From an uncultured virus (IMG/VR IMGVR_UViG_3300049732_000141) (lineage: Duplodnaviria; Heunggongvirae; Uroviricota; Caudoviricetes): a stretch of 64,000 bases of DNA. A program made the translations under genes and the position numbers. Of the stretch, positions 3,064-61,026 are shown piece after piece. The stretch is from the IMG/VR virus record IMGVR_UViG_3300049732_000141. One strand, given 5' to 3'. Each line of letters opens with the position of its first letter. The first letter of the stretch is position 1. The notes under the pieces are model-generated. The model did no database searches and had not been told where the DNA came from. It saw only the letters and a list, made by a program, of their open reading frames with translations.

Positions 3064-3088
3064 GGTCGCGCCCTCCGCCGGTCTATAG

Positions 3089-3104
3089 TGCAAGCGCCGT
3101 GCCA
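3089..3104 (-). promoter_or_regulatory. sigma-54 promoter P2
   Basis: TGGCACG-GCGC-TTGCA, intergenic. Confidence 0.8.
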
Positions 3105-3217
3105 GCCCCGGCCGGGCGGAATCCGGCCGGATTCCCGAGGGTGCCCCGGGCGACCGACCCCCGGAGGTTACAATCCCGGAATCGTTATTACAGCCCTTGT
3201 CATAGCCCTTCTTCGGG

Positions 3218-3466
3218 CTACCAGCCCGCTGGCCGCCGGACGTTGGCCCTTATTCCGGCTACCGTCGCGTCCCCGGGGAACGTCCCCTGTGGGCATCGGC
3301 AGTTCGGCGGCCGGTAGTTCTTCGGCGGAGGCGATTGGCCCGGCACGTGTTTCCAGCAGGCCGGGTCGCCGCAGCCACCGGGCCCGTTGTGATTCTCGTC
3401 GTGGCAGATGAGCAAGCAGCCCTCGGGCAGCTTGAGATCATCGAGAAACGAGCGCAGGAACTTCAT
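3218..3466 (-). CDS. Cys-rich hypothetical protein
   Basis: ATGA overlap; several Cys/His. Confidence 0.55.
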   Translation of the reverse strand: MKFLRSFLDDLKLPEGCLLICHDENHNGPGGCGDPACWKHVPGQSPPPKNYRPPNCRCPQGTFPGDATVAGIRANVRRPAGW

Positions 3467-4170
3467 CGACGCCCCCGCATCTGCGCCGGGCACCCGCCGA
3501 TCATCCGATGCCTGACGAACTTCCCCTTGGCCGCGCAATACGTGCAGAAGCCCTCGGCCTTGGCGCGGTCGATGTTCGCCTGCATCCGTTCCCGCTGCGC
3601 CTCGCGGTCCAGCCGCAGCCGCTCGATGGCCGCCCGGTGATTCCGCTCCCGCTCTTCATATTCCATCCACCGCAGATGCTCTTGGCCCCGGGCCAGCCGC
3701 GCCGCGTCGAGCGGCATGTTCGGGTTGGCCTCGCACCACGGATTGGCGCAGCGCCCCTGCGTGCCGACCGTCACGCTCTTCGCGTGCTCCGGCGGAGCCT
3801 CCGCGAGGTAGAACGCCGAGGAGCAGAACGGGCACGTCACCCACGGGTAGCGCGGGTCGCCAAGCATGACGTCCGCCATGCGCCGCTGGCCCAACACCGT
3901 CCGCACAATGGTCTGAGCGCACGCGCCGGGCACTTGGGAGACGGGCAGGAGCAAGGGCACGTCCTCGCGCAGGAGCGCCGCGCCGCACTCGCACAGGCCG
4001 GGCTGACCCCCGATCCGCAGTTCGTTGGCCTCGCTCGTCGTCAGCCTGCCGTCGCGCACGCATCTCAGAATCATGGAGCCCTCCTTGGCGAAGCCCGCAA
4101 AGTAACTGAACTCGTCGAACACCAGACTGGGCCGGTCCGGGTCGCGGTAGAGAAGGCCGGTCACCATCAC
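3463..4170 (-). CDS. Zn-finger-containing hypothetical protein
   Basis: CPFC, CANPWC and CTYC motifs; GTGA overlap. Confidence 0.55.
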   Translation of the reverse strand: MMVTGLLYRDPDRPSLVFDEFSYFAGFAKEGSMILRCVRDGRLTTSEANELRIGGQPGLCECGAALLREDVPLLLPVSQVPGACAQTIVRTVLGQRRMADVMLGDPRYPWVTCPFCSSAFYLAEAPPEHAKSVTVGTQGRCANPWCEANPNMPLDAARLARGQEHLRWMEYEERERNHRAAIERLRLDREAQRERMQANIDRAKAEGFCTYCAAKGKFVRHRMIGGCPAQMRGRR

Positions 4171-4460
4171 GCCACGTGGATGGCCGCGAGAATCAAAGCC
4201 CGCGTCCACGGGTTGCCGTTGTAGTAGATGCCCTCGCGCTTGCGCGTCTGCTTGAGCGCCTCATCGAACTCGATCAGGGGCACCATCCGATCCCCAATAC
4301 GACAGTCCAGCAGCCCCGCTTGATAGCCCTCCTGCAGGCCAGAGAACACCATCACGTGATGGGTCTCGGTGTCGTAGGACCAGACCATCCTCTCGAAGGG
4401 CTGGTCATTCCACTCGTCGCACGTAATCGGAGTGAACCGCCTCCGCACTCGTAGCATCAT
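4167..4460 (-). CDS. hypothetical protein
   Basis: AGGAGG RBS, ATGA overlap. Confidence 0.65.
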   Translation of the reverse strand: MMLRVRRRFTPITCDEWNDQPFERMVWSYDTETHHVMVFSGLQEGYQAGLLDCRIGDRMVPLIEFDEALKQTRKREGIYYNGNPWTRALILAAIHVA

Positions 4461-4810
4461 GCTGACCTCCTGTAGCTCTGCTTCTGCTGCTCGTTCTCGC
4501 TCTGCGTCATCCACCGGAGATGGTTGGGGTTGACGCACATCTTGTTCTCGCCTCCCGGGCACGTATGCCCGGCTCGATGCTCCGGGCTTGGCGCGGGCCC
4601 GTGGAACCACTCGCACACGATGCGGGCCACGCGATCCACGCTGCGCCCCTTGGTATGGATCACCGGGCGCGGGCCCGAACGTGTCCGGCTACACGCGCCG
4701 CGCCACAGGATGCACCCGCCGGGTGCCGAGGGTGCTGCCGTCTTGGCCCACACCCGCTGCCAGAGATCCCCGCGCCAGCCGACCGCGCAGCCTCCGCCTT
4801 GGGGTCTCAT
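4457..4810 (-). CDS. HNH endonuclease (phage type)
   Basis: CILWRG...VARIV...HTC...CVNPNHL...N pattern. Confidence 0.75.
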   Translation of the reverse strand: MRPQGGGCAVGWRGDLWQRVWAKTAAPSAPGGCILWRGACSRTRSGPRPVIHTKGRSVDRVARIVCEWFHGPAPSPEHRAGHTCPGGENKMCVNPNHLRWMTQSENEQQKQSYRRSA

Positions 4811-5130
4811 CGTTGGCGGCCTTTCAGGTTCCGCAGGGAACTCGCTGTTGGGATCTGCCACGTCATCGCCTGCAGCAGCGCTCGGGCTCGGCGTGACGGC
4901 CGCTTCGTCAGGAAGCCCGTGCCTCGCCCCTGCGTGTAGGGAATGCGTCTGCGGTCCCGAGGGCTGAACTGCCTCGCGCTCGGGTCCAACACGACGCCAT
5001 GCCCGCGCAGGAACCAGTGGCGTTCTCCGTCCGGCATCCGCAGCACGCATGGCGTCCAGCCTGCGCGTTTGCCTCCAAGGGCGTGGTAGAGCGCCTCGCT
5101 GGCGACGTAGCAATTGCCGCGCCTCGTCAT
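4807..5130 (-). CDS. hypothetical protein with possible Cys-His-Asp triad
   Basis: GNCYVASEALYH...HWFL...LDP. Confidence 0.6.
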   Translation of the reverse strand: MTRRGNCYVASEALYHALGGKRAGWTPCVLRMPDGERHWFLRGHGVVLDPSARQFSPRDRRRIPYTQGRGTGFLTKRPSRRARALLQAMTWQIPTASSLRNLKGRQR

Positions 5131-5312
5131 GCGTGCTCCGAGTGGATGGAGGCGCTCCCATCAGGATGCACCACCATCACGTTGCGATGGCTGCGAAAGG
5201 CCTTCTGCTTGGCGTAGGCCAGCGCGTCATCGGGTTCGAGGAACTCGGCCAGCTTCCGGGCGTCGATCCGCCCGGTCGTGGTGATCGTCAGCAGGAACAC
5301 GTGGAACTTCAT
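5127..5312 (-). CDS. small hypothetical protein
   Basis: ATGA overlaps at both ends. Confidence 0.55.
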   Translation of the reverse strand: MKFHVFLLTITTTGRIDARKLAEFLEPDDALAYAKQKAFRSHRNVMVVHPDGSASIHSEHA

Positions 5313-5632
5313 GACAGCACCGCCAGCGTGAGCGCCTGCAGGGCTTCGACGTCCTCGGCAAACGCGGAAGGAGTCGCGGGCTTCCCGTAGCAGAGGCCCT
5401 CGGGCGTGACCATCTCCCCGTGCGCGAGGCGTCCGATCTGCTGCCACACGCTGCCCGAGAAGCGCTCGACCTTGGCGACCGACTGCGTCTTGTAGGCGTC
5501 CGAGATGATGGTGATGCGAACCTTGTGCGGCTTGCCCCCGGCCCGCAGATCGTAGATCGCCTCGAACCGAACGCCCTGCGTGCCGTCCTTGGCGATGCTC
5601 TGGTGACGCTGCACGAATTCTCCGTTGAACAT
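5309..5632 (-). CDS. hypothetical protein
   Basis: AAAGGAG RBS. Confidence 0.7.
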   Translation of the reverse strand: MFNGEFVQRHQSIAKDGTQGVRFEAIYDLRAGGKPHKVRITIISDAYKTQSVAKVERFSGSVWQQIGRLAHGEMVTPEGLCYGKPATPSAFAEDVEALQALTLAVLS

Positions 5633-5781
5633 GGCGTGCTCCTTTGGCCTACGCTTGCTGCGAGGCCGGTTGACGTGCTCCTACTCTCGCTCGGGAATCG
5701 TGACCCACACCAGCTTGCCGCTCGGGGCATACACCGGGTAGATCACGCAGCCCATCTTCGCGCTCCACTTCGGCGCGGGCT

Positions 5782-6321
5782 TCACTGGCCCTCCTTGCGG
5801 GCGAGGCGCTCGAAGCGCCGGAACTCCTCGTAGGCTCCCGCCAGCCGCGTGACGTCCTGCAGCGCCGCGCCAATGTTGTGCGCGTCGTGGTGGTGGATGA
5901 TCTCCCGAACGCCCGGGTTCGCATCGGCCAAGCGCTCCTGCGCCTCGCGCACGCGGTTGGCGAGGATGCTCAGCGCCGCGCCGTAGTCCGTGACGATCAG
6001 GCTGCGCTCGGCAGCCAGCCCCTCGGCCAGCACCGTGACGCTGGTCCCCTTGGCCGGGGCGACAGGCGCATCGGGGAGGGCCGCGATGTATCGAGCGTAG
6101 GTGTAGCCCTCGGTGTTCACCAGCACCCGGCGGTTGCCCGGCAGCAGGGCCACGAAGAACCGAGGCATCTCCTGCGCGAAGTGCGCCATCGGATGCGGAG
6201 TTCGGATCTCGATGTGCGGCAGGGCTTCGGCCGCCTCGATGGTCGAGGGGCTCGTCACCCGGGGTGCGTCTGCCCAGTCGCATGCCTTGCGTGCCCAACG
6301 AATCGCGTCGATGTTGATCAT
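5782..6321 (-). CDS. hypothetical early protein
   Basis: AGGAGG RBS directly after promoter P3. Confidence 0.7.
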   Translation of the reverse strand: MINIDAIRWARKACDWADAPRVTSPSTIEAAEALPHIEIRTPHPMAHFAQEMPRFFVALLPGNRRVLVNTEGYTYARYIAALPDAPVAPAKGTSVTVLAEGLAAERSLIVTDYGAALSILANRVREAQERLADANPGVREIIHHHDAHNIGAALQDVTRLAGAYEEFRRFERLARKEGQ

Positions 6322-6349
6322 GGCGTCGTTCCTCCTGCCCCCATCCCTA

Positions 6350-6365
6350 TGCAACCCACGTGCCA
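6350..6365 (-). promoter_or_regulatory. sigma-54 promoter P3
   Basis: TGGCACG-TGGG-TTGCA, intergenic. Confidence 0.8.
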
Positions 6366-6446
6366 AGCGGAAAGCCTAGCGTTTGCCCCTGCTCGTGGGC
6401 AGGGCTGCCTCATGTGGATGGCAGCCCTGCGATCACGATTACGTTC

Positions 6447-6797
6447 TTAGAAGCTCGGGTCGCGGTAGGCTTCCCGCGTGCCCAAGCGCAGCCCTGCGCC
6501 CCGTCCCGTTTCGCGCCAGCAGCCCTTCTTGTTCAGGCGGAAGGTGCGCTTCCGGCCGTTGGGGTTGGGCGTGTAGCGATACTCCTGATGCTCGGAGAGC
6601 ATCTTGCCCGCGATCAGTTCGGTGTCGTCCTCGGTGACCTCGATGGTCTTGCCGCTCGGGGACACCTTCGTGATGGTGCCCGCGTAGCGATCCGTCCACG
6701 CCAGCACCGTCGCGCCCATGCCCACTTCGGGCTTCGGCTGGCCCGGGCCGCTCATCATCCAGTTGCTCACGCTGTTCGTGTCGCTGCCAAGTCTCAT
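6447..6797 (-). CDS. phage hypothetical protein
   Basis: AGGAGG RBS; PEVGMGAT..WTDRY..TI motif recalled from other phages. Confidence 0.7.
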   Translation of the reverse strand: MRLGSDTNSVSNWMMSGPGQPKPEVGMGATVLAWTDRYAGTITKVSPSGKTIEVTEDDTELIAGKMLSEHQEYRYTPNPNGRKRTFRLNKKGCWRETGRGAGLRLGTREAYRDPSF

Positions 6798-6806
6798 GGG
6801 AACCTC

Positions 6807-7112
6807 CTACAGGCGTTCGGGGTTGGCGGAGCCTATCATCCGGCCCGCGAGCTTGAGGGGCTGCGCCGGGTAGCTGGCCACCAGCTTGCGCTCCCCGCGA
6901 TTCGTGTAGATGCGGGCTGCGCGAACCTTGGTCGGGCCAAGGTGCGCGTTCGCGCCGCCGGGCTGCGTCGAGGCCTCGAAGCGCTCGACGTAGAGCTTCA
7001 GGTTGGCGTCGGTCGGGCGGCCGAACTCGCGGGCCGTCCAGCCTGCCGGGGTATAGATGAAGCCCGGGACGTCAATCTCGATGGCGTAAGCCGGGGTGTA
7101 GGTTCTGCCCAT
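6807..7112 (-). CDS. hypothetical early protein
   Basis: AGGAGG RBS directly after promoter P4. Confidence 0.7.
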   Translation of the reverse strand: MGRTYTPAYAIEIDVPGFIYTPAGWTAREFGRPTDANLKLYVERFEASTQPGGANAHLGPTKVRAARIYTNRGERKLVASYPAQPLKLAGRMIGSANPERL

Positions 7113-7138
7113 CTGGTCGCCTCCTGCCCCACTGATGG

Positions 7139-7154
7139 TGCAAGCAGCGTGCCA
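7139..7154 (-). promoter_or_regulatory. sigma-54 promoter P4
   Basis: TGGCACG-CTGC-TTGCA, intergenic. Confidence 0.8.
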
Positions 7155-7341
7155 CCCCGAATGCCCGGGGATCTGGCCCTCCTTGGGCCCTGCTGCGCCA
7201 TTCCGATTGCAAAACCCTACGTGGTGTGTCGGTTTCTGCAATCGCCGTGGCAGGCGCTCCGGCTGCCCACTTCGGGCGACGTTTGCGTCGGTCGGATCAC
7301 GTTTCTCGTTTGGCAGCTTGCCCTCGCTGCGAGAACAGGAG

Positions 7342-7553
7342 CGTCATGACGTTTCTGGAGTGACTCCCGTGAGAGACACTCGCAGACTCAGAAACGTCAT
7401 GACGATTCTGGAGAGACACCTGCGTGACACTCTCTCAGACTCAGAAGCGTAATGACAATTTCGGAGCGACTCTCGTCTGAGACACTCGCAGACTCAGAAA
7501 CGTCATGACAATTTTGGAGAGACAGTCGAGACAGTCGCGCCGGAGACAGTGTC
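7342..7553. repeat. four tandem 53-bp units with palindromic core CAGAAACGTCATGACGATTCTG
   Basis: CGT(C/A)ATGAC starts at 7342, 7395, 7448 and 7501. Confidence 0.9.
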
Positions 7554-7643
7554 TTTCCGCTCCGCTTTTGTAATTATCCCCCTAACCCCTAGAGGATTCC
7601 CGGAACTGGGACCAGAGACAGTCAACTGAGACACTGACTGTCT

Positions 7644-7807
7644 GATTACAAATCCCACATTTGGCATCGCACCTGAAAAGAGACTCCTCGCTGAGACACT
7701 CGAAGGCGATTACAAATCCCACATCTGCCATCGCGCCGGGCGGAGACAGTCAGAGACAGTCGAAGACAGTCACTGACTGTTCGATTACAGATCCCACATC
7801 TGCAATC
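7644..7807. repeat. three copies of imperfect palindrome GATTACARAT-CCCAC-ATYTGSMATC with GAGACAGT-type repeats between them
   Basis: Copies start at 7644, 7708 and 7783. Confidence 0.9.
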
Positions 7808-7932
7808 GAGTCTCAGGTCGTCTCGGACGACAGATCAGGATCGTCATGTCGGAATTGTTCGAAGGCCGCGACACGTTGCCCGGCGGCCGGGTTTGGCCCG
7901 AACCCGGGCGATGCGAGGCGAAAGGACGACGA

Positions 7933-7960
7933 ACGTCCGATAAGAGTAGTTATGTTAACT
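7933..7960 (+). other. dif-like XerC/XerD recombination site
   Basis: ACGTCCGATAA-GAGTAG-TTATGTTAACT, 11-6-11 layout; right arm 10/11 to the E. coli XerD arm TTATGTTAAAT. Confidence 0.8.
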
Positions 7961-8369
7961 TGCAAGTCCTACTGAACGCGGGACTTACGCGATTCACGCA
8001 TGACGGTGGGCGCTACCAGCGCTCCGGCGGCCGATGCCCGGCCCGAACGTAGGCGGCCGACCAGCGCATGGCGGCCTCCAGCCGGTCCGGGTTGGCCTCG
8101 CGGCGCGGCCGGAACGCCAGCAGGCGGCCCGGGCCTACGCTGCTCCCACGGTCACCTGACCTAAAACGCCCGGGGTCAGGTGTCAAAACGTTGACAGGGG
8201 TGTCAGGAACTACGAAGGCCATCGTAGGGGTCCTCCGCGACCCGGCTGGCGCGGCCTGCCCGGCGTTTGCCGGGCGGCGGTTTCGAGGGCCTGCCACGGG
8301 GCAGCACCTCGTCCATCTCGTCTCGCACTTCGTCCGCCGTAAACCCGCGTGGAACCGAGGGTTGACAGC

Positions 8370-8586
8370 CTTTGGACGACTTGGACGACTTGGACAATGT
8401 ATCTATTTAACATATAAGGAGGAACCAACTAGTTCATCCCTCATCCGTGTGTCAAGTTGAGAGCCCCTCGTCCAACTCCCATGTCGTCCATTCCACCCTA
8501 AAGTCCTGAGCCCTCGGGACTTAGGCTGGACGTGCAAGTGGACGACTGGCCCTTTTCCTCGTCCCCTCCCCGTCCACTGCCCGTCC
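8370..8586. other. putative replication origin
   Basis: Three tandem TTGGACGAC-type 9-mers, AT-rich core 8397-8418, oppositely oriented CGTCC motifs; directly downstream of primase-helicase. Confidence 0.45.
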
Positions 8587-10983
8587 CTAGAAGGGCAGTT
8601 CCTCGTCCTCTTCGGCCCCCGGCTGGCGGCCCACGTCGCCCTCAGCGCGTTCCGGGGTATCCGTGCCCCGGCCTCCCTCGGAGCCCGCCACACGGCCAAG
8701 GACAGCCGGTTCCCCGAGGCCTTCCTGCTCGTCGCCCGGTTCCCGTTCCACCGGCCTCGGATCGGCCAACGGCAGGCGCGGCTCGGCCTTCGGCCCCCGG
8801 GGTGCGCCCGGTGCGGGCGGCGCGGGGGTGGGCGTTTCGACGTCTTCCCAGTCCCCCTTGGTGCCGACCTGCTTGTCAAAGATCTCCCTTGCCCTTGTCA
8901 ATGGCACGAGCGGGTAAGCCATCGCTCGAAGCTTTCCGAGTCGGGGCCTTTCTGCCGGGCCCGCGAAGTAGTCCCTGAGAATGCGCTTCGCCAACTCCAT
9001 CGTGGTCAGGCGACGGAAGATCCGCTGCCGTTCGCACCACCCGAGGTAATCCTCGTGGGCAAGGCTGGTGACCATCAGTTCCGGCCAGTCAGGTCCGTCT
9101 TCGACGATACCCGCTTCCAGCTTGCCTGTCGAGAGCTTCTCGAACCACCACTTGTGCTCGTTGGACAGCGTCAACTCCTGCTGCACCCTGTATTCCTCGG
9201 TCTTCGGCGCACGGCGCACGCGGGCCGGATCGACGGGCCTCCGCAGGAGCAGGTCGAGGAACGCCTGCAGGCCGCCAGCGTCCAACTGCTGCTGCACCTT
9301 GGTGAAATACTCGATGTCCTGCTTGCGGGCGTTGCCGACGAGCAGCGCGAAGAACCGGCGCTCGTCCATATCCGCCGGGCACGACCAGTGCTCGTTGGTG
9401 GCCATCACGATGTGGCAGAAGTTGGCCTCCTCTTCCGAGTCGATGCGCTTGCGCGTCACCGTCAGCGTGGGCTCCGTGATGACGCGCTTCAGCGCACCCA
9501 GTTCCTTCTTGTCGCCAGCGAAGAACGCCTCGTCCGCGAACACCAGCACCTTGCCGGACAAATGAGCGTTGAAGTGGCCCGTCAGGTGGTCCACCTTGTC
9601 GAGGTGGGCGAAGTGGCGGCCGAAGATGCGGCCGAGGTTGCGGGCGAAGATGCCCTTGCCTACGCCCTGACCGCCGCGCAGCACGACGGCCACGTCGGCG
9701 GGCACGCCGGGACGCTGCACGAGCAGGGCGCACCAGTCCATCAGATACTCGTAGTAGGACTGGTTCCCGCTGCAGATGTTGTTCAGCAGGTGGTCGAGGA
9801 AGAGCGTGCAGTCGCCGGGCGCGGGCTCAATGGCGAGGCCCTTCCAGAGGTTCAGGTCTTCGGGATGCGCCGCGTGCGGAGGCGGAGCGAATACGACGGA
9901 GCGGAACTGTCGGCGCTTCGGGTGCTCACGCCAGATCTCGAACTTGGAGCGCGTCTCGACTTCGGTCTCGCCCTTCCTCGGACCCTTGGCGATTTGACGG
10001 GTGCCGAGGGCCACCTTCTGGTTGGCATACCACGCATACATGGCACGCTCGGACTGGAACACGACCTTGTCGGCCTTCTCGGTGCCAATCACGGTGTCCG
10101 CGCCGATGGTGACGTAGAAGTGCTTGGCGTTCATCTCCTCGACGATGGCCTCGAACTTCTCCTCCGCACTCCGGCCCGCGCCGAACCACGCACGCAGACG
10201 CTCGACGACGTCCTTGCCGAAGATCTTCTCCAAGGCCGGGCCGCCAGTCGTCTTGGCACCCTCGGCCGGGGTCTTCGAGTAGGTGCTGCGGACGCTGCTC
10301 TCGCAGTCCTTCCACACCTCGCCCTCGGCCTGCAGCGTGATCTCCGAGAGGATCTCGATGCACTCCTTGGCATCGATCTTCTGGCGGTAGAGGAACCCCG
10401 TGAGGTCGAGCAGCGCCTGATGGCGTCCGCTCTTGGGCCACGACCGCACGATCAGCGCCGTGACGGCCGTGAGCAGCACAGCGCGGCGCAGGGTCTTGCC
10501 ATCCACGCTCGACGCCTCACGGTCGGCTTCCCACGTCAGCGTTTCACCCGAGGCTCCGTGGAGCGAGGGCGGGAGCACCGTCTGATACGTGGGGCCCGTC
10601 CGGATTTCGCAGAGCATCCCGACCTTGGGCTTGCCGTCGCCATCGGGGCGGGGCACGTCGCGGAACTGCTCCAGCTTCATGCCCTCGACGCGATACCAGT
10701 AGTGGCTGGAGGGCTTGCCCGGGCGGCCGTGGATGCGGCCGGTCGTCGGCAGGAACCGATGGGCGGCCTTCACCGCCTCCATGCAGTCGAGGTCGATGTC
10801 CACGAGGTCGCCGGTGAGCGCCGTGCCAACGTTGTCGGTCTCCCCAAAGTCCTCGACGGCGAACTTCACCTCGGGGTCGTTCCAGCCCTTGATCCTCGGG
10901 CCCTTCTCGCCACGGGGGATCGGGTGCGGGCGTCCGAAGCCCTCGTTGAGATACCGCTGCACCAGAAAACGAACGTCGCTCAC
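8587..10983 (-). CDS. Prim-Pol primase fused to SF3 (D5/NrS-1-like) helicase
   Basis: N-terminal KGP..W, DIDLD, HYWY, PPS motifs; Walker A GGQGVGKG, Walker B FADE. Confidence 0.9.
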   Translation of the reverse strand: MSDVRFLVQRYLNEGFGRPHPIPRGEKGPRIKGWNDPEVKFAVEDFGETDNVGTALTGDLVDIDLDCMEAVKAAHRFLPTTGRIHGRPGKPSSHYWYRVEGMKLEQFRDVPRPDGDGKPKVGMLCEIRTGPTYQTVLPPSLHGASGETLTWEADREASSVDGKTLRRAVLLTAVTALIVRSWPKSGRHQALLDLTGFLYRQKIDAKECIEILSEITLQAEGEVWKDCESSVRSTYSKTPAEGAKTTGGPALEKIFGKDVVERLRAWFGAGRSAEEKFEAIVEEMNAKHFYVTIGADTVIGTEKADKVVFQSERAMYAWYANQKVALGTRQIAKGPRKGETEVETRSKFEIWREHPKRRQFRSVVFAPPPHAAHPEDLNLWKGLAIEPAPGDCTLFLDHLLNNICSGNQSYYEYLMDWCALLVQRPGVPADVAVVLRGGQGVGKGIFARNLGRIFGRHFAHLDKVDHLTGHFNAHLSGKVLVFADEAFFAGDKKELGALKRVITEPTLTVTRKRIDSEEEANFCHIVMATNEHWSCPADMDERRFFALLVGNARKQDIEYFTKVQQQLDAGGLQAFLDLLLRRPVDPARVRRAPKTEEYRVQQELTLSNEHKWWFEKLSTGKLEAGIVEDGPDWPELMVTSLAHEDYLGWCERQRIFRRLTTMELAKRILRDYFAGPAERPRLGKLRAMAYPLVPLTRAREIFDKQVGTKGDWEDVETPTPAPPAPGAPRGPKAEPRLPLADPRPVEREPGDEQEGLGEPAVLGRVAGSEGGRGTDTPERAEGDVGRQPGAEEDEELPF

Positions 10984-31063: not shown

Positions 31064-32194
31064 CTAGAAGAGGATGGGCCACGTGCAGGTGCGCCCGCGC
31101 TTCTTGTCGAGCAGGAACAGCGCCTGCTTCGGCGGTTCGTAATCCGCCTTGATCGACAGGGCGAACGCGTTGTAGCCGATCATGGACCCGTTGCAGATGA
31201 AGTTGCCGCCGTCGCGCATCTGGTGGAAGTGCCCGAACACGTCGAGGTCCGCATGGCGGCCCTTGTTCCACTGCGCGATGGCCTTGTTGACCGGAATGTA
31301 GATGCCCCCGACGCCTCCCTGATACTTCACGGCGTGCCCGTGGTGGAACCGGATCGTCGTCTCGTAGACGTCGAGGTAGGAGTGCATGCCGTCCGGGATG
31401 ATGAACTTCACGCGGGGCTCGTTGCGGAAGTAGGCGGCCAGATGGAGATACATGAGGTATTCCAGCGAGTGCCCGTTCTCCGCGCCGAAGCGCGTGGTCT
31501 GCGTCGTCCGTCCGTGGTTGCCCGAGTGGCACGGGAGCACGATCTCATAGTCCGACTCCCGCAGGATGAACTCAATGCCGCCGATGATCATGTTCTGCGC
31601 GGCCACGAGGGCGTGCGCGGGCTGCAGTTCGTTCATCTCGGCGTTTTCCGCGCCGTGGATGTGGTTCGTGATGAAGTCCCCGAGGAGCGCCAGCACGATG
31701 GTCCGGATCTCGATGTCCTGCCGGAGCAGGTTGGTCAGCCGCAGGCCGCTCCTGAAGAACTTCGTGGCCCGGGCCTGCGCGATCTCGACGTTGTAGGTGT
31801 TCAGGCCGCCGATCTCGGGGCCGACGTTCTCCTCCACGTGCCAATCGGAGGCCACCCACACCACGGTGCCTTCGTTCTTGGAGGTGCCGAGCCGGGGCTC
31901 GATCCGAACCGGATCGATGGCGGACCCGAGGACGTCGAACGCGCCGATGACCCGGGTCTGCCGCTCGATGATCTTGAGGGCCTCTTCATACTTCCGCTTC
32001 AGCGTGTGCTGCGAGGATCGGTCGGCGGCCTGCTGGATGTCGGCCTGCACGTCCTCGGGACCGGGTTCCTGCGGGGTCGGGTTGGCGAGTTGTTCCTTCT
32101 GGAGCCGCCACTGGAGGGCGTTCCGCGTGATGCCCAGTGCGGCAGCAGCCTTCCGCTGGCTGCCATACTTCTTGATGGCCTCTCGGATATTCAT
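31064..32194 (-). CDS. HTH + calcineurin-like metallophosphoesterase
   Basis: N-terminal SQRKAAAALGI HTH; SDWH, LGD, GNHGR, HHGH, GHFH. Confidence 0.85.
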   Translation of the reverse strand: MNIREAIKKYGSQRKAAAALGITRNALQWRLQKEQLANPTPQEPGPEDVQADIQQAADRSSQHTLKRKYEEALKIIERQTRVIGAFDVLGSAIDPVRIEPRLGTSKNEGTVVWVASDWHVEENVGPEIGGLNTYNVEIAQARATKFFRSGLRLTNLLRQDIEIRTIVLALLGDFITNHIHGAENAEMNELQPAHALVAAQNMIIGGIEFILRESDYEIVLPCHSGNHGRTTQTTRFGAENGHSLEYLMYLHLAAYFRNEPRVKFIIPDGMHSYLDVYETTIRFHHGHAVKYQGGVGGIYIPVNKAIAQWNKGRHADLDVFGHFHQMRDGGNFICNGSMIGYNAFALSIKADYEPPKQALFLLDKKRGRTCTWPILF

Positions 32195-44809: not shown

Positions 44810-46673
44810 TCAGTGTCTCCACGTATCGGCGGCCAATGCGGGCCCACTGGTATTCTGGCCGGGCCACCAGCGCCAACCCGCGCTCACGCAGGTTCATCCG
44901 CTGTTCCCGGTTCGAATACAGGTCCTTGAGGGCTTGCACGGCGGCCTGTTCGTCCATAATACCTCCGATGGCGTTCGCCACCGGAGTCACGGACGTCATC
45001 GAGCAGGGCACCATCAGTGCGGCATCTGCGGCCCACTCCCCGAGGGCCGACCAATGCGGCAGGATCTGCGGAATACCGCAGGCCATGCCCTCCATCGTCG
45101 TCAGGCCCCATCCCTCGCCCTGCGTCGTGGTCATCTGCACGTCGAACGCCCGGTAGGTGTTCCTCACCCCCTCGTCCGTTGCGCCCGCCCACACGTCTGG
45201 CTGCGACAGGATCAGCCGCCGGAAGTTCGGCACGCTGAACCCGTAGTAGGCCGCCAACTGCTGCACGTTCACCCCGACATCGCCCGTGGGGCACACGTGC
45301 AGGTAGAGAAACGCATCCTGCGCCTTCGTCTCGTCGAGGAACCGGGCGAAGTAGCGCACCGTCAGGTCGAGGTGCTTGCGCGGCTGGTTCCGGTTGACGT
45401 TGCCGACGATGAAGATCTCTTCCCGGCAGAGAGCCTCGGGAAGCCCGAGGGCCTGCCTTGCCTCGACCTTGTCGCCCGGCGTGAACGTCGTGCGGTCGGT
45501 CCCGAGGGGGATCACCGTGCTTGGGGCCTTGAGACCGGCGAGGTTGGCCTCCTCCTGCGCGAAGCGGGTCCAGAAGATCACGTGGTCGAGCCCCTGCAGC
45601 ATCGAGGCGCGGCAGTTGGCCCCGTCCACGGCGATGACCCCGACCATCTTCGGCCGGATGGCGTTGATCTTCGGGATCTCCTTCATGTAGCGCGGGATGT
45701 TCCACGGGTCCTGCTGGATCACGACGACGTCCGGCTCATACTTGTCGATCATCTCGGCCAGACGTGAAGCACCGAAGGGCTCCTCCCGGGTGAACGCCCG
45801 CGCCGCCGGATGCATCGGGTATGGATAGTTGTGGGGCTCCCCTCGGTAATTGATCCCGAGCACCACGACCTTCCACTCCTGAGACACGGTCTTGAGGATC
45901 TCATGAGTGCAACGGGCGAAGCCGCTGTCGCAGCCCGCGTCTCCCACCCATAGCAGCACTGGGCGCTCCCGCACGGGCGGGGGCGCGGAGGGCTTGGCCG
46001 GGCCGGTGTAGACGTAGTCCGGGCCGCCCCACAGGGGCATCCTGACGCCCCGGCTGCCGGGTGTGAGCGTGCTGGCCACCTCGGCGTGCTGCACGAAGCT
46101 TGGCACGGAGGCCAAGATCTGCGGAATGCGGAGCGCCTGCAGCCAATAGCGCATCGCCAGATCGTAGGCCCCGGTGCTGACTCCGCCGTCCGGCCCGGTC
46201 ACGGTCGGGTTCTTTTCGAGGTAGGCGATGAGCCCCGGCGCGAACTTCACATCGAGCGCGAACGCCTGCGTGCAGCAGAACACGGACGTCGGGTAGTTCC
46301 AACTCGTGAACTTCTGCATGGACCGGATCTTCGGGTGGGGCACCGAGAAGGAATACATCGGAATCGAGGGCCGGGCATGGTCCGTCAACCAGCGCTCGAC
46401 GCTGCCGAACAGGTCCTTGCACGGCTCGATGTCGTCCTCCAGAAAGAGAATGAAATCGGAGCCAACCTGCAGCGCCCGGTGCAGGCCCTCCTTCAGCGCG
46501 GAGATGACGTTCTCCGTGGCCGTTCGCTGGTTGGAGCAGAGGACGTTCACCTCGGGCATGCCGAGCGGATCGTCCGCGTGCGACCTCTGAATGAGATCCA
46601 GTGTCCTCTTACAGATGGTCTCCCGAGCGGGAGTGGTGATCATGACCGCCGTGACTGTGAACTTCTCCTTCAT
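44661..46673 (-). CDS. two-domain glycosyltransferase (GT-A plus GT-B/GT4)
   Basis: LFLEDD (GT-A); SGFA, NRNQPRK, GEGWGL..MEGMACG.P (GT4). Confidence 0.85.
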   Translation of the reverse strand: MKEKFTVTAVMITTPARETICKRTLDLIQRSHADDPLGMPEVNVLCSNQRTATENVISALKEGLHRALQVGSDFILFLEDDIEPCKDLFGSVERWLTDHARPSIPMYSFSVPHPKIRSMQKFTSWNYPTSVFCCTQAFALDVKFAPGLIAYLEKNPTVTGPDGGVSTGAYDLAMRYWLQALRIPQILASVPSFVQHAEVASTLTPGSRGVRMPLWGGPDYVYTGPAKPSAPPPVRERPVLLWVGDAGCDSGFARCTHEILKTVSQEWKVVVLGINYRGEPHNYPYPMHPAARAFTREEPFGASRLAEMIDKYEPDVVVIQQDPWNIPRYMKEIPKINAIRPKMVGVIAVDGANCRASMLQGLDHVIFWTRFAQEEANLAGLKAPSTVIPLGTDRTTFTPGDKVEARQALGLPEALCREEIFIVGNVNRNQPRKHLDLTVRYFARFLDETKAQDAFLYLHVCPTGDVGVNVQQLAAYYGFSVPNFRRLILSQPDVWAGATDEGVRNTYRAFDVQMTTTQGEGWGLTTMEGMACGIPQILPHWSALGEWAADAALMVPCSMTSVTPVANAIGGIMDEQAAVQALKDLYSNREQRMNLRERGLALVARPEYQWARIGRRYVETLNAVRSQAQGRSGDAKQDPADQEELPGSSGGGAVSGNGDRLDRGEAAHAG

Positions 46674-48064
46674 GCCATCCTCGCAGCGATGAGCAGCACC
46701 GACGTGAACGTGGCGTTGCCGAGCTTCAGGTTGAGGTGCGGTTCGAGTTGGAACGGCTGGTGATCGACGTAGGCGTCGTGCGGGTGCGTGCCCGGCGTCA
46801 GCAGGATCGGCCACAGGCGGTTGCCCTGCTGCGCCACCAGATGCGTGAGTTCGATCAGGTGCGCCCCGGTGAACACGCAGAGGTTCTCGGCCTCGAAAGG
46901 CGTCCCGCCGATCAGGAACTCCGTCGTGTGCGCCGCGATGCCGCCGTGCTTCAGGCAGCGCATCTGGTTGAGGAAGAAGTTCATCCCCGCCCGCACCCCG
47001 CCAAGGTGCTCCAGACACGACGTGGACCACGTGAAGTCGAACCGGCCGTGCAGGCCGATGGGGATGTCCCGCATGTCCACCGGCTGGTAGGCCACGTTCC
47101 GGTCGAAGGTCGGCTTGCTGGTGATGCCCTCGTAGGGCAGGTCCGCCAGCGCCGCAGCGTGCTGCGCCGTGTTCCACACGCCCGGCGCGGGTCGGTCCGT
47201 GGCTACCACCGAGGCTCCCTGCTCCGCGAACCAAGCCGGGAGGCGCTCCTTGCCCACCCCGAACCCGAGGACGTTGCGCGGGTGCCCGCTGCCGAACCGA
47301 TCCACGAACGCCTGCGCGATGCTGCAGTGCTCCCACAGCTTCCGGTGGATCTTCTTGAAGGCGTCGAGTTCCTTCATGCGGGCCTCGAACCACGGCTCGT
47401 CGAAGTCCGAGCGCCGCACGCGCCGGGGCCCAAGGCCACGGTGGAACAGGAAGCGCTCGAAGTCGTCGGGGAAGTCGAAGTCATCGGTGCCGTCGTCGGG
47501 GATCTCCACGTGGTGGCCCCAGTCCCGGATGTCGTTCGGCTCCGTGTCCACCGGGTGACCCGTGAAGGCGCAGTAGGCGGGCCAGTCGCTGCCGGGACCA
47601 GCCCGGTGCAGCGCGTCCGCGTAGACGTCGTGGTCCTCGGGACCGAAGGAGCAGCCGAACATCTCCGCGCCGGGCTTGCCTGTGGCTGCGCTTGGCTTCA
47701 GGCGGGCGAAGTGCGTCCAGCCGAGCCCGTGGTCCTTGACCATGATGTCGGCCGCCGCCTCGGTGAGATACACGTCACCGAGCACGACGAGCGTGCGGTC
47801 TGTCAGATGCCAGAACGGCCGAGTCGCCAGCCGCGCCATCGCGTTGCTGGACTCGTAGGGGATCGTCACCGTCCGCGCCCCGAGTGCGTGGTAGGGGTGA
47901 TGCGGATGGCAGGTGATCACGATGTCGCTGATCCCTCGCGCCTGCAGCAGACGAACGGTGCGGTCGATCAAACGCTCCCCGTTCACCATCGCTTGGTGCT
48001 TGCGGACGCCAAGGTAGTTGTTCCACCGGCTGCCGCTCCCGGCGGCCGTGATAATCGCTCTCAT
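46670..48064 (-). CDS. nucleotidyltransferase (MobA/LicC-like) fused to class I SAM methyltransferase
   Basis: AAGSGSRW...K...GE.LI; LGDV; DFD; VLGFGVG.E, FDFTWS.SCLEH, LKHGG. Confidence 0.8.
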   Translation of the reverse strand: MRAIITAAGSGSRWNNYLGVRKHQAMVNGERLIDRTVRLLQARGISDIVITCHPHHPYHALGARTVTIPYESSNAMARLATRPFWHLTDRTLVVLGDVYLTEAAADIMVKDHGLGWTHFARLKPSAATGKPGAEMFGCSFGPEDHDVYADALHRAGPGSDWPAYCAFTGHPVDTEPNDIRDWGHHVEIPDDGTDDFDFPDDFERFLFHRGLGPRRVRRSDFDEPWFEARMKELDAFKKIHRKLWEHCSIAQAFVDRFGSGHPRNVLGFGVGKERLPAWFAEQGASVVATDRPAPGVWNTAQHAAALADLPYEGITSKPTFDRNVAYQPVDMRDIPIGLHGRFDFTWSTSCLEHLGGVRAGMNFFLNQMRCLKHGGIAAHTTEFLIGGTPFEAENLCVFTGAHLIELTHLVAQQGNRLWPILLTPGTHPHDAYVDHQPFQLEPHLNLKLGNATFTSVLLIAARMA

Positions 48065-51487: not shown

Positions 51488-51904
51488 TTAGCTGCCGGGC
51501 GTGAACTGCTGCCCGCCACTCGGGCGGATGCTGACATCGGCTTCGAGCCCGCCGTCCACCGGCGCGGTCGCGGCCACGTTCGACACGAACCCGGAGAACA
51601 TCCAGACGGCTCCGTCCGGGTATTCCAGATCGTATCGGTCCTTCGAGCCGCTGAGCCACGCTTCGAGCAGGCCGGTCAGCGCATCGTGAGTCGCCTCGCC
51701 CGAGGGGAGGAAGCCCAGTTTGAACTGAAGCTCGCCCTTCCGGCGAATGCCCACGACGTAGCTGTCGTCGTCGGAGTTGTGATTCGTCGTCTCGATGGGG
51801 TTGCGGGTCAGCGCGGGCGGGGTGATGTCGCGGAGTTCCGCGATGGCAGTCCCGTTCCGCTTGATGATCGTTCCCTGCGCGGAAATCGCTACGGATTCGG
51901 CCAC
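51488..51904 (-). CDS. major tail tube protein
   Basis: GT......I..L.DITPP..TR..IETT...G.R..G...F; YPDG..W.FSG.V. Confidence 0.75.
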   Translation of the reverse strand: MAESVAISAQGTIIKRNGTAIAELRDITPPALTRNPIETTNHNSDDDSYVVGIRRKGELQFKLGFLPSGEATHDALTGLLEAWLSGSKDRYDLEYPDGAVWMFSGFVSNVAATAPVDGGLEADVSIRPSGGQQFTPGS

Positions 51905-51913
51905 GGTCCCCCC

Positions 51914-54229
51914 TTAATGCTTCTTCTGCTGGAACTGCGCCACCAGATCGATGGGCGCAGGAGCAGCCGCGTTGTCCGTCTGAGCCGCACGCGGAGCCTG
52001 CCCGGCGAAGCTGACCGTCTTGGCACCCGAGAGGGCGACAAGCTGATCGAGTTCCGTCTGGTCCTTGCCCGCAAGCTGCTCGTCGGTGAACTGGCACTTG
52101 CCAGTGTCCTTGAGCGCCTTGATCGTCGCGGTCTTGCGGGCCGCCTCGGCAGCCACGAACGCATCGTAGGAGGCCACAGCCGCCTCGTCCGCCTTCGCAG
52201 CCTTCAGCACCCCGATGGCCTCGGCCAGCGTCTTCGGCTGCACCGGAACCTCGACCTGCTTCTCGACGATCTTCTCGACTTCCTTCACCACTTCCTTCGG
52301 GGTGACGGCGGTTTCGAGCGCGGCAATCTGCTCGTCCGTCGCACCTTCGAGGAACTTGGCGCTCTCCTCGGTGAAACTCGCTCCGAGCTTCGCCAGAAGA
52401 GCCTTCACTGCATCTCGCATGTGAATTTCCTTGTCCGGCTGCTTGTTCCCATGACATCCGCACGGAGCAGCCTCTCCCGTGCCGGAACCTTCTTCGAGCG
52501 GCTCATACCGCCCAACGAACTCAACCTCAGTGGCGGTATCACCAACCGAGACGGTGCCATCATCAGCCACCGTAAATGACCGCTGCCGGAGGGGCCGGAG
52601 ACCACCGGCCGGGGGCAGCACATCCCCGGGGGAGGAGTAGTCGACGTCGTAGACGACCGTCCCCTCCTCGGGGTAGAAGTCAAGAATATAGCACATGCGG
52701 CCTTCCTTGGCCTGCAGCGCCTTGCGAAGCCGGTCCTCGATCTCCCGGGCCCCCAGTTCGTCGCCGGACTTCGCGGCATCCCGAAGCACCGACTTCACCC
52801 ACGCCATGACGCTCATACGATCTCCCTCTTCTGCCCGGCGCTTGGCCGGGGAAATCCCGAGGGGGCCCAATGGGAGGGGACCGCCAACCGGGGTGACGCT
52901 GCTCTTCGGGGCCTTCGGCAGCAGCCGGGCGGCCTTCTTCGGCGGGGTGAAGCCCCACTGAGCGAACGCCCGGTCGAAGCCGACCCACTTGCCGTTGCGA
53001 TCCATGCCCCGGTTCGCCAACTCGTATCGGGCGACCTGTCGGCCGGAAATCTTGCCCTTGGCCAGCGCCAGCACGTCCTTCGTCTTGCCGGTCTGGAGCG
53101 GCCCGAGGAGCTTCCACGTCGTCGTGTTCTCCTCGTTGCCTGCCACCTCACCCCGGGTCTTGGCGGAGACCGGCCAGATCTGCTTGGCCTTGTCGAAGCC
53201 CACCCACTCGCCCTCGCGGTCGAGCCCACGGCTGGCCATCTCCAGCCGGGCGACTTCGTTGTAATCCGCCTTGCCGGTCGCGACCTGCGTCAGCGCGTCC
53301 CGGTCGGTGATCTGCGCCAGCCCGTTCAGCTTGGCCTCCGTGGAGTTCTCATCCTTGGCGGCCTCCTGATAGTTGACTGCTTCCTGCACCGGGCGCGGCA
53401 GCGATCCTCGGCCCATCGGGCCGCCTCCGCCGCCACCGCTGGACCACATGCCCTTGTCGTCGCGGGGCTGGTCCGGGTCGAAGCCCGCCGCCCGCATCGA
53501 TTCCTGCAAGGCCGCTCGAACGCCGCAGCCCATCGTGATGCTGCAAGCGCCCGTGTGCCCCGAGGGGAGCAGGGCGAGATGGTCGGGGGACATACGCTTC
53601 CACGTGCCCTTATACTTCCGGCCGCTCAGCGCGTGAACCTTCTCGTCGTGAACCTCGGCCTCGACAAACGCGCCCATCGAGACCTCGATGGGGTCGCCGG
53701 ACTCCAGCCGGGCAACCAGCATCGGGGCAACCTGCATGGCGCGGGCCTTGTCGATCCACGCGTCCATCGTCAGGCGGCCGTCCTTGAGGAAGGCGTTCCG
53801 GGTAAAGCCGAGTGACAGGGCCTCCATGATGTCGGGGGCCGAACCCGAGATGGGCTGGCCCTCCCGCATCGGGTGGCCGTAATACAGGGGCTGGTGGTTC
53901 CAGCGCTCCACCCGGTCTTCAAAGGCCGTCAGGGGCACCAGTTCCGGGGCCGGGGCTCCGAGTGCGTGAATGACCCCCTCGGTCATGGCGATCACGGGAA
54001 CGATCAGGTAGTCCCTGTCGTTCTCCCGCTGTGCCGTAGGCTTGATGGCCGCAGACTTGAGGCTGGTAAACCTGAAGGGCAACACCTCGCCATCATACAT
54101 CAAGGCCGAGATAGCGACGGGTTTCCCGAGGGGCTTGCCATCCCGGCCGATGACCTGAAAGGACACGTGATCGTGGTCCGGCCCCGTGACCTCGATGCCA
54201 TCCACTGGCTGCACGAATCGGTTGCTCAT
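51914..54229 (-). CDS. prohead protease (DUF2213-like) / cargo / scaffold fusion
   Basis: GHP, EVSMG, PDHLALL..GACS..GCG; C-terminal helical scaffold-like region. Confidence 0.8.
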   Translation of the reverse strand: MSNRFVQPVDGIEVTGPDHDHVSFQVIGRDGKPLGKPVAISALMYDGEVLPFRFTSLKSAAIKPTAQRENDRDYLIVPVIAMTEGVIHALGAPAPELVPLTAFEDRVERWNHQPLYYGHPMREGQPISGSAPDIMEALSLGFTRNAFLKDGRLTMDAWIDKARAMQVAPMLVARLESGDPIEVSMGAFVEAEVHDEKVHALSGRKYKGTWKRMSPDHLALLPSGHTGACSITMGCGVRAALQESMRAAGFDPDQPRDDKGMWSSGGGGGGPMGRGSLPRPVQEAVNYQEAAKDENSTEAKLNGLAQITDRDALTQVATGKADYNEVARLEMASRGLDREGEWVGFDKAKQIWPVSAKTRGEVAGNEENTTTWKLLGPLQTGKTKDVLALAKGKISGRQVARYELANRGMDRNGKWVGFDRAFAQWGFTPPKKAARLLPKAPKSSVTPVGGPLPLGPLGISPAKRRAEEGDRMSVMAWVKSVLRDAAKSGDELGAREIEDRLRKALQAKEGRMCYILDFYPEEGTVVYDVDYSSPGDVLPPAGGLRPLRQRSFTVADDGTVSVGDTATEVEFVGRYEPLEEGSGTGEAAPCGCHGNKQPDKEIHMRDAVKALLAKLGASFTEESAKFLEGATDEQIAALETAVTPKEVVKEVEKIVEKQVEVPVQPKTLAEAIGVLKAAKADEAAVASYDAFVAAEAARKTATIKALKDTGKCQFTDEQLAGKDQTELDQLVALSGAKTVSFAGQAPRAAQTDNAAAPAPIDLVAQFQQKKH

Positions 54230-56361: not shown

Positions 56362-56807
56362 AGGTAGATCCTCCCCGAGTTTTCCTGCAGCAGATAGTCC
56401 CCGGACTCCAGCAGGAGGTAGTCCAGCCCCCTGATGTTCACACCCCGAGAAGGCTGGATATTCACGGTCACCCGCAGGAGCCCGTCTACCGGGGCCTGCG
56501 GCTGAAAGCCGCACACGAAGCCCTGCAGCCGCCACGGGGGCCCCTCGGGAACCGTCACCACGTAGGTGTCCTCCGAGGCGTTGGCCCACGCTTCGAGCAA
56601 GGCCGTGTGGACCGGGTCGCCGGGCACGAAGCCGATGTCGAACACCAGTTGCCCGTAGCGCCGGATGTCGGTCCAGTATTCGTCGTCCACGTCGGCGTGC
56701 CGAGTGCGCTCCATCACGGGGCGGTCCAAGGACGGCAGCGTGACGTTCCCCAGTTCGGGAATCGCCGTGCCGTTCATCGTGATCGTCGTGCCGTGGGCGG
56801 AGATCAT
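56358..56807 (-). CDS. tail-tube protein paralogue with C-terminal LLxExG repeat
   Basis: Aligns by eye to 51488-51904 (ISAxGT, IRRxG, LLEAW, APVDG). Confidence 0.75.
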   Translation of the reverse strand: MISAHGTTITMNGTAIPELGNVTLPSLDRPVMERTRHADVDDEYWTDIRRYGQLVFDIGFVPGDPVHTALLEAWANASEDTYVVTVPEGPPWRLQGFVCGFQPQAPVDGLLRVTVNIQPSRGVNIRGLDYLLLESGDYLLQENSGRIYL

Positions 56808-60753: not shown

Positions 60754-61026
60754 TCAGTTGGTTTTCTGTGGCGGAAGCCGCGAGTATAGCTCTTCGAGGC
60801 CGGGCCGCCAGACTTCTATAGGATACCCCATTCTTTCGCAGGCTTGCATCGCCCTTAACGCGAGGGTCAAGGTAGCGGAGAACACCTCCCCGGCGGTCAC
60901 CCCGCCCGCCACGGTCTTCATCCCGTCGAGGGCCGCATCGGTCAACATGCGGACGACCTCGGGGTCCGGAGGTCGAGGGTTCACGCCGCTCGGGCGACCC
61001 GCTGCTTCTTTTTCGCGCTCCGCCAT
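60754..61026 (-). CDS. hypothetical protein
   Basis: GAGGGG RBS; fills TerL-portal gap. Confidence 0.6.
   Translation of the reverse strand: MAEREKEAAGRPSGVNPRPPDPEVVRMLTDAALDGMKTVAGGVTAGEVFSATLTLALRAMQACERMGYPIEVWRPGLEELYSRLPPQKTN

Follow-up and report, generated by a model that had tools for sequence, protein, structure and literature searches.

Dif-Type Site and Its Surroundings

The DNA analyzed here (the window, 64,000 nucleotides at its full length) carries at positions 7933–7960 the 28-bp sequence ACGTCCGATAA-GAGTAG-TTATGTTAACT, in which two 11-bp arms flank a 6-bp centre (11-6-11) with inner ATAA/TTAT symmetry. The sequence is placed in a non-coding gap that extends from the stop codon of a primase gene (8587) to a cluster of small genes (~7112); from right to left, the order is primase, origin-like stretch, dif-type site, repeat array, and small genes. 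The XerC-type arm of 11 bp (7933–7943, + strand), which would be bound by XerC as judged from its letters, is identical to the left arm of Anaeromyxobacter dif as given in PMC2731167 and in the supplement of PMC3025954, and also to that of the chromosomal sites of G367, G024, and G148. The central region, or spacer, of 6 bp (GAGTAG, 7944–7949, +) is read from the sequence and is followed by the XerD-type arm of 11 bp (7950–7960, +), which is more common than any other right arm among the listed matches of the Vicinamibacteria class, is the same in 8 of 10 phage sites, and differs by a single base from the arm of E. coli K12 in Table 1 of PMC2731167.

This dif-type sequence is confirmed as genuine, unique in the window, and not a product of chance. 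The core pattern, searched with at most one mismatch, has a single occurrence per 64-kb window as compared with none in 100 dinucleotide shuffles; when scored with a matrix of 92 chromosomal sites, whose arms are shared with the phage site by construction, the site reaches 36.6 bits and the runner-up position in the window 5.6 bits. An earlier sequence-only reading had described a dif-like layout (11-6-11, ATAA/TTAT, non-coding gap) and a right arm that departs from the XerD arm of E. coli at one base; the layout is borne out by the reading of the sequence and by the shuffle test, and the arm by the published table (PMC2731167). A single dif-type site, not two inverted ones, is present in the window of this dsDNA tailed phage. 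KOPS polarity about the site is absent from the window (6 motifs toward, 5 away), and no KOPS bias was found in five relatives; both counts refer to the E. coli-type motif, from which that of the host may differ. Similarly, the window shows no GC-skew switch at the phage site, and no sigma-70 promoters or terminators were found close to it.

An inverted repeat, AAGTCC-N11-GGACTT (7964–7986), abuts the XerD arm, and a second AAGTCC/GGACTT inverted repeat with N10 spacing lies at 8501–8522; both were read directly. On the XerC side, an array at 7336–7830, directly upstream of the small-gene cluster, consists of three nested repeat families, i.e., a 53-bp unit in 3.4 copies with the palindrome GTCATGAC, a 30-bp unit in 3 copies, and 12 copies of GAGAC, all on a single strand, as compared with 55 for the entire window. 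Contigs break inside this array in all four runs. The array, which could be a set of operator, packaging, or accessory sites, is located 100–600 bp from the XerC arm, as compared with ~200 bp of accessory sequence at cer/psi-type sites; it is not conserved, no such array having been seen beside the sites of relatives.

Between the site and the primase gene, short repeats in both orientations surround an A+T-rich core (8300–8580); by 6-mer counts, the top 6-mer occurs 8 times in this stretch against a maximum of 7 over 200 shuffles, and 7 of 11 primase-downstream regions exceed their shuffle maximum. By likeness to primase-helicase replicons, the stretch is regarded as a putative replication origin. 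Within its A+T-rich core, a lone stretch at ~8403–8413 (− strand) is one base off the E. coli XerD arm; it is partnerless and may be due to chance. The adjoining gene (8587–10983, −) encodes a DUF5906/VapE-like primase-helicase of 798 aa, which has a prim-pol domain in relatives and serves as the positional anchor of the site. The large subunit of terminase is encoded at 60981–62945 (−) with a long N-terminal extension, for which atlas searches returned no family; in a circular genome, the terminase gene and the site would be separated by ~9.8 kb of small genes, of which 1.8 kb lie beyond the window.

The Phage and the Search for a Recombinase

The window belongs to a siphovirus-type tailed phage with terminase, portal, capsid, tail tube, tape measure, PolA, helicases, and primase-helicase; the longest primase-bearing contig measures 65,837 bp, so that the window comprises all but ~1.8 kb. 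The phage sequence was found, whole or in part, in 14 soil runs, 7 of which contain at least half of its words and 3 of which are possibly its source, and no close cultured relatives were found (terminase at most 27% and capsid at most 37% identical). Contigs over ~5390–8400 are 1.5–2 times deeper than their neighbours in runs X1, X4, and X5, and less clearly so in X3, and X4 contains a variant joint of 3082 to 5639. This excess at ~5.4–8.4 kb, measured as contig-level depth that is blind to ends, is a lead to either a terminal redundancy holding the site or a mixture of strains.

The sequence-only reading had found no tyrosine or serine recombinase in the window, and the scans made here agree with it. 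No match to either family was obtained from 91 selected window ORFs with Pfam and PHROGs, and none from 80 further window ORFs of at least 150 aa with Pfam; together, these make up 171 of the 327 listed ORFs of at least 70 aa. A six-frame search of G001, a record 99.4% identical that spans 76–54567 of the window, returned no recombinase either, and PF00589 and PF07508 are absent from four near-complete carrier relatives. Moreover, none of 5 records yielded ParA, the XafT/DUF3653 domain, or the FtsK-gamma domain; ParM and TubZ families were likewise unmatched among the 171 window ORFs scanned, and a ParB-like stretch inside a head-module protein stays below the cut-off. No repressor family was matched in the window beyond one weak HTH on an exonuclease, and tRNA genes were not found.

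Several other genes of this phage were also noted. A gene at 54226–56589 (−), between the Mu F-like and protease/scaffold genes, encodes a head-module protein of 787 aa that combines two Alt-like ADP-ribosyltransferase domains with the weak ParB-like stretch; its product is probably an injected host-takeover enzyme. Glycosyltransferase and nucleotidyltransferase-methyltransferase genes (44884–48064, −) are embedded in the head-tail connector module and possibly serve virion or DNA glycosylation. Two tail-tube-like genes (51488–51904 and 56358–56807, −) lie upstream of the capsid gene as part of the head module, and relatives match both of them at one place in that position. Finally, an HTH-exonuclease fusion (31064–32194, −) adjoining the endolysin is among the most conserved genes, with 56–72% identity in three relatives.

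Conservation in Related Phages

Relatives were gathered through primase, capsid, and portal searches, and nine related records were found to possess the site at 21–36 bits (G003, G004, G008, G010, G011, G027, L245, L247, and L462); together with the window, these carriers represent about seven lineages. An arms-only scan of the collection led to L160, whose primase and capsid are 42% and 62% identical to those of the window and whose site has the same place and orientation. A lack of conservation in related phages had been named beforehand as evidence against the sequence-only reading; on the contrary, the nine related records keep the site. Wherever the primase is present, the site follows it by 0.7–1.0 kb, except in G011, which shares the replication genes alone with the window and has its site elsewhere. 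In relation to the terminase genes, the site is 15 bp upstream of a terminase gene in G004, G008, G010, and L245, 19 bp upstream in G003, and ~470 bp upstream in L462; it falls between the small and large genes in G027 and, at 4571–4598 of L247, lies in frame within a 666-aa terminase ORF. The small-terminase assignments were made by position, with no Pfam match, and the orientation of the site relative to the terminase genes varies among carriers. As for the enzymes themselves, the terminase of the window and G003 (and L247) is of the type with a long N-terminal extension, and G004, G008, and G027 combine another terminase with the same portal family.

In a quick portal tree, all 8 carriers fall inside one clade of 11 rows with 99% support, and none of the 36 rows elsewhere is a carrier; the three site-less rows of this clade are all fragments. 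This tree has 47 rows, for which 46 of up to 97 loci were kept, and leaves out site-less loci with less than 4.3 kb upstream of the portal (including that of G015), duplicates, and partial portals. The clustering was equalled by none of 500 shuffles, a result that near-copies inflate. Searches of whole records matched the pattern in 8 of 44, of which 5 are credible and 4 of those 5 had been added as known carriers; the matches in G053, G054, and G063 were rejected as chance, with 5.9–10.8 bits as compared with 21–37 for carriers. No site was found in G015, which is 99% complete and shares 20 genes. The site therefore characterizes a single clade and not the whole family. Flanks are unrelated between lineages, and the arms are retained; all ten phage sites have both arms at the exact 6-bp spacing. 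For example, among G004, G008, and G010, which are ~94% identical, 0 of 22 arm bases differ as compared with 1–3 of 6 spacer bases. At least 120 viral contigs (L122–L241) contain the same arm pattern, many of them with common flanks near DNA methylase genes, which suggests another large dif-bearing phage group.

Chromosomal Counterparts and the Probable Host

In the class of G022 (titled Vicinamibacterales), the motif is present in 136 of 301 genomes and is single-copy in 134 of these 136; in both of the two chromosomes sampled it coincides with the flip of the GC skew, and it is therefore taken as the chromosomal dif of the Vicinamibacteria class. Both arms occur exactly in G367, G024, and G148, all of this class. 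Exact copies of both arms also occur in records titled Acidobacteriota, delta-group, Bacillota, Omnitrophota, and Planctomycetota, and arms matched within one base were found in 24 of 301 Acidobacteriota genomes and in 25 of 251 genomes of a delta-group phylum (probably not Myxococcota). Because the arms are exact in many phyla, the site cannot name the host, and the earlier suggestion that it may identify the host did not hold; for uncultivated soil phages, the arms are a weak host clue, pointing here toward Vicinamibacteria.

The window 28-mer is 3 bases from the best Vicinamibacteria-class site, 3 from the site of another record, and 6 from both published Myxococcota sites, and 8 of the 9 sites of relatives are 2–3 bases from a Vicinamibacteria-class site. 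The host is therefore placed, as a best guess with slightly better than an even chance from site similarity, in the Vicinamibacteria (Acidobacteriota). A Myxococcota host, compared through the two published sites, is not the best guess; the resemblance to Myxococcota arms suggested by the sequence-only reading stands for the left arm, which is that of Anaeromyxobacter, whereas the sites of relatives fit Vicinamibacteria best. Hosts may differ within the phage clade, because the G003 site is 3 bases from Anaeromyxobacter and closer to it than to the Vicinamibacteria class. Atlas searches returned no host. CRISPR spacers gave short matches in 18 of 111 genomes, none of the 15 inspected being within an array, and the best of them leading to a primase of 29% identity.

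Search for Integrated Forms and Comparison of Spacers

Related prophages flanked by dif halves, a check that the sequence-only reading had proposed, were not found in the genomes, contigs, and runs examined. The best 120 of 594 capsid homologues all come from contigs no longer than 67,785 bp, and 1 of the best 120 primase homologues is on a contig of 229 kb. A search for the capsid gene gave nothing in 301 Vicinamibacteria-class genomes and a 30% match in one of 251 delta-group genomes. In all 4 runs analyzed, two of which may be the source sample, the site is spanned by unbroken contigs, and no loose contig end at the site was seen among 24 shown of 219. The missing prophages are weak evidence, given that the true hosts are probably unsampled and the genomes incomplete. 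As for the wider family, searches for a tyrosine integrase came up empty in 20 records and gave one positive, a distant provirus, in 37; integrases are missing with or without dif, and dif is therefore not a replacement for an integrase in an otherwise temperate family.

With regard to the spacers, that of the window is absent from 138 distinct chromosomal 28-mers and from 138 class-level matches, and only 1 of 9 distinct phage spacers (that of L247) was found among chromosomal sites, being the spacer of one host site. Singletons account for 30 of 138 class-level spacers by the author's count, from which about three in four true spacer copies would be expected to have been seen if the hosts belong to that class.

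Proposed Function and Alternative Explanations

The site is best described as a maintained mimic of the host chromosomal dif, under selection in one clade of integrase-less soil siphoviruses. As the most likely reading, with a chance just short of even, host XerCD may recombine the phage DNA with itself and in this way circularize or monomerize it. In this view, two copies of the phage site would be bound by host XerC and XerD and recombined with each other; the outcome would be either that an incoming, terminally redundant linear genome is closed into a circle or that multimeric or catenated replication products are converted to unit circles. The job would be that of Cre/loxP in P1, done without a phage recombinase, at entry or during replication. 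Cre/loxP is known to circularize terminally redundant P1 DNA. Binding and catalysis by Xer, recombination between phage sites, the stage of the cycle that is served, the way in which XerD is activated, and the host are inferred.

Self-recombination would be consistent with the fixed arms and free spacer, because it tolerates any spacer. It is further favoured by the clade-wide retention of the site, by phage spacers that are mostly unlike those of hosts, by a location adjoining the terminase genes and origin-like stretch, whichever its orientation, by the integrated form not being found in the genomes and contigs searched, and by both arms being intact, unlike those of TLC/GGI attP as described in PMC5357621. 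On the other side, 28-bp dif-type sites normally require FtsK or accessory proteins (10.1101/2024.04.05.588136), and the XerD activator is unaccounted for, because no KOPS polarity, FtsK-gamma, or XafT/DUF3653 was found; most relatives do without the site; and the site of the window is ~9.8 kb from the terminase gene, while P1 loxP lies opposite the plasmid origin, not beside it. In addition, the site precedes the small terminase gene in some phages and follows it in others, and hence need not fall in the terminal redundancy of every phage. A dif mimic at the genome end, with two copies in packaged, terminally redundant DNA that XerCD circularizes on entry, is unlikely; in this case, the phages, which are apparently virulent, would be kept from recombining into the chromosome by a host-unlike spacer.

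Alternatively, the site could be an attP by which an IMEX phage lysogenizes at chromosomal dif through host XerCD, either LME-1-like or by a VGJ-like, XerC-only route that tolerates a spacer mismatch on the XerD side, although this is somewhat unlikely. Its close match to a terminus-located host dif, the tailed precedent of LME-1 (PMC9765430, PMC12407071), the mismatched centre of VGJ attP (PMC5357621), the first letters of the window spacer (GAG, as in two class-level spacers), and the L247 spacer shared with a host site would all suit an attP. Against these stand the capsid and loose-end searches above, with no prophage in the 301 class genomes, none of the best 120 capsid homologues on a contig exceeding 68 kb, and no junction, together with the own PolA replisome, the lack of a repressor beyond the weak HTH, the L247 site inside the terminase frame, and the sites 15–19 bp from the terminase start in several relatives. 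Quite unlikely is a circular plasmid prophage whose site resolves dimers at cell division in the manner of dif-type sites on large plasmids: a 28-bp site with a 6-bp centre is of the large-plasmid type, an origin-like stretch and a repeat array are close by, and an integrated form was not found; however, the five records lack ParA, the ParB-like stretch is subthreshold, KOPS polarity and a GC-skew switch are absent, the site is beside the putative origin rather than opposite to it, and the proven plasmid prophages described in PMC8026635 have partition proteins and mostly a recombinase of their own. Integration or dimer resolution through host XerCD, the two uses put forward by the sequence-only reading, are both weakened in this way, the former by the missing prophage and the intact XerD arm and the latter by the missing ParA and KOPS polarity.

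XerC and XerD might also bind the site without recombining it, as a roadblock, decoy, or regulator that affects terminase expression or packaging, tethers DNA, or titrates Xer. Conserved arms with a free spacer fit binding alone, five records have the site abutting terminase start codons, and no activator was found; nevertheless, one copy per genome makes a poor decoy, the exact 6-bp spacing and both arms persist in all ten sites, and the orientation and the side relative to the terminase gene vary, all of which leaves binding alone improbable. An origin by chance, or as neutral leftover DNA of a host terminus, would agree with the patchy presence across the wider family, but it is largely refuted by conservation, i.e., by arms that are kept amid unrelated flanks, as well as by the shuffle test (0 of 100) and the inflated tree clustering (0 of 500), and is very improbable indeed.

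Comparison with Known Xer and Cre Systems

The chromosomal dif sites of the Vicinamibacteria class and Anaeromyxobacter resemble the phage site in being 28 bp long, with the 11-6-11 layout, ATAA/TTAT symmetry, and near-identical arms, and in being single-copy and non-coding; chromosomal dif is activated by FtsK at the terminus, whereas the phage site is found in a 66-kb phage, beside a putative origin and packaging genes, with a spacer of its own. Similarly, host XerCD acts on the sites of extrachromosomal elements at cer, psi, and the FtsK-dependent 28-bp sites of large plasmids (10.1101/2024.04.05.588136); the phage differs from these in having no conserved XerC-side accessory region in relatives and no plasmid maintenance genes.

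Phage use of host Xer has so far been described as an integration route. VGJphi, TLCphi, CTXphi, and the gonococcal island are likewise integrase-less with a dif-like site (PMC5357621, PMC6744903), and VGJ attP, like the phage site, departs from dif in its centre (PMC5357621); the Vibrio IMEXs and the gonococcal island are, in these sources, filamentous, satellite, or island elements located at dif. The XerD arm of TLC and GGI is divergent (PMC5357621), and TLC encodes XafT (PMC6744903), neither of which is the case in this phage: in contrast to the TLC/GGI type of IMEX, its XerD arm is canonical, its spacer unmatched, and DUF3653 found in 0 of 5 records. The CTX type folds two inverted dif-like sites as ssDNA (PMC2731167), as opposed to the one site here. 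No recombinase was found in the sequence examined, as would be expected of an IMEX, and integration at host dif, the other mark of an IMEX, was not found in the genomes and contigs searched; a dif-like site alone is no proof of a temperate lifestyle.

The sequence-only reading had stated that Xer-exploiting elements are mainly filamentous phages, islands, and plasmids, which stands with a published tailed exception. Legionella LME-1 is a T7-like tailed phage (PMC12407071) that integrates at Legionella dif as an IMEX of the single recombinase XerL (PMC9765430), and thus, like the phage here, it is tailed and bears a mimic of host dif. The att of LME-1, shortened to 22 bp, has the same sequence as host dif, and LME-1 itself occurs in integrated form (PMC9765430); the phage here has a full two-arm XerC/XerD site with its own spacer, is siphovirus-type with a PolA replisome, and yielded no integrated copy. 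No paper listed in the open-access searches describes a non-integrative dif mimic in tailed phages; 10.1101/633727 deals with an inovirus.

The closest likeness in function would be to P1, which stays monomeric through Cre/loxP (PMC2409434) and from whose head linear two-lox DNA is delivered and circularized by Cre (PMC2841073). P1 and the phage here share one recombination site per genome and, as proposed, a circularizing or monomerizing job; P1 encodes its recombinase and a partition system, with loxP opposite the plasmid origin, whereas the enzyme here would be borrowed and partition genes were not found. For an integrase-less tailed clade that has an intact dif at the junction of origin and terminase and gives no indication of lysogeny, a role in the lytic cycle is suggested; circularization on entry by host XerCD, if true, would add to integration and the resolution of plasmid dimers a third way in which mobile DNA exploits host Xer.
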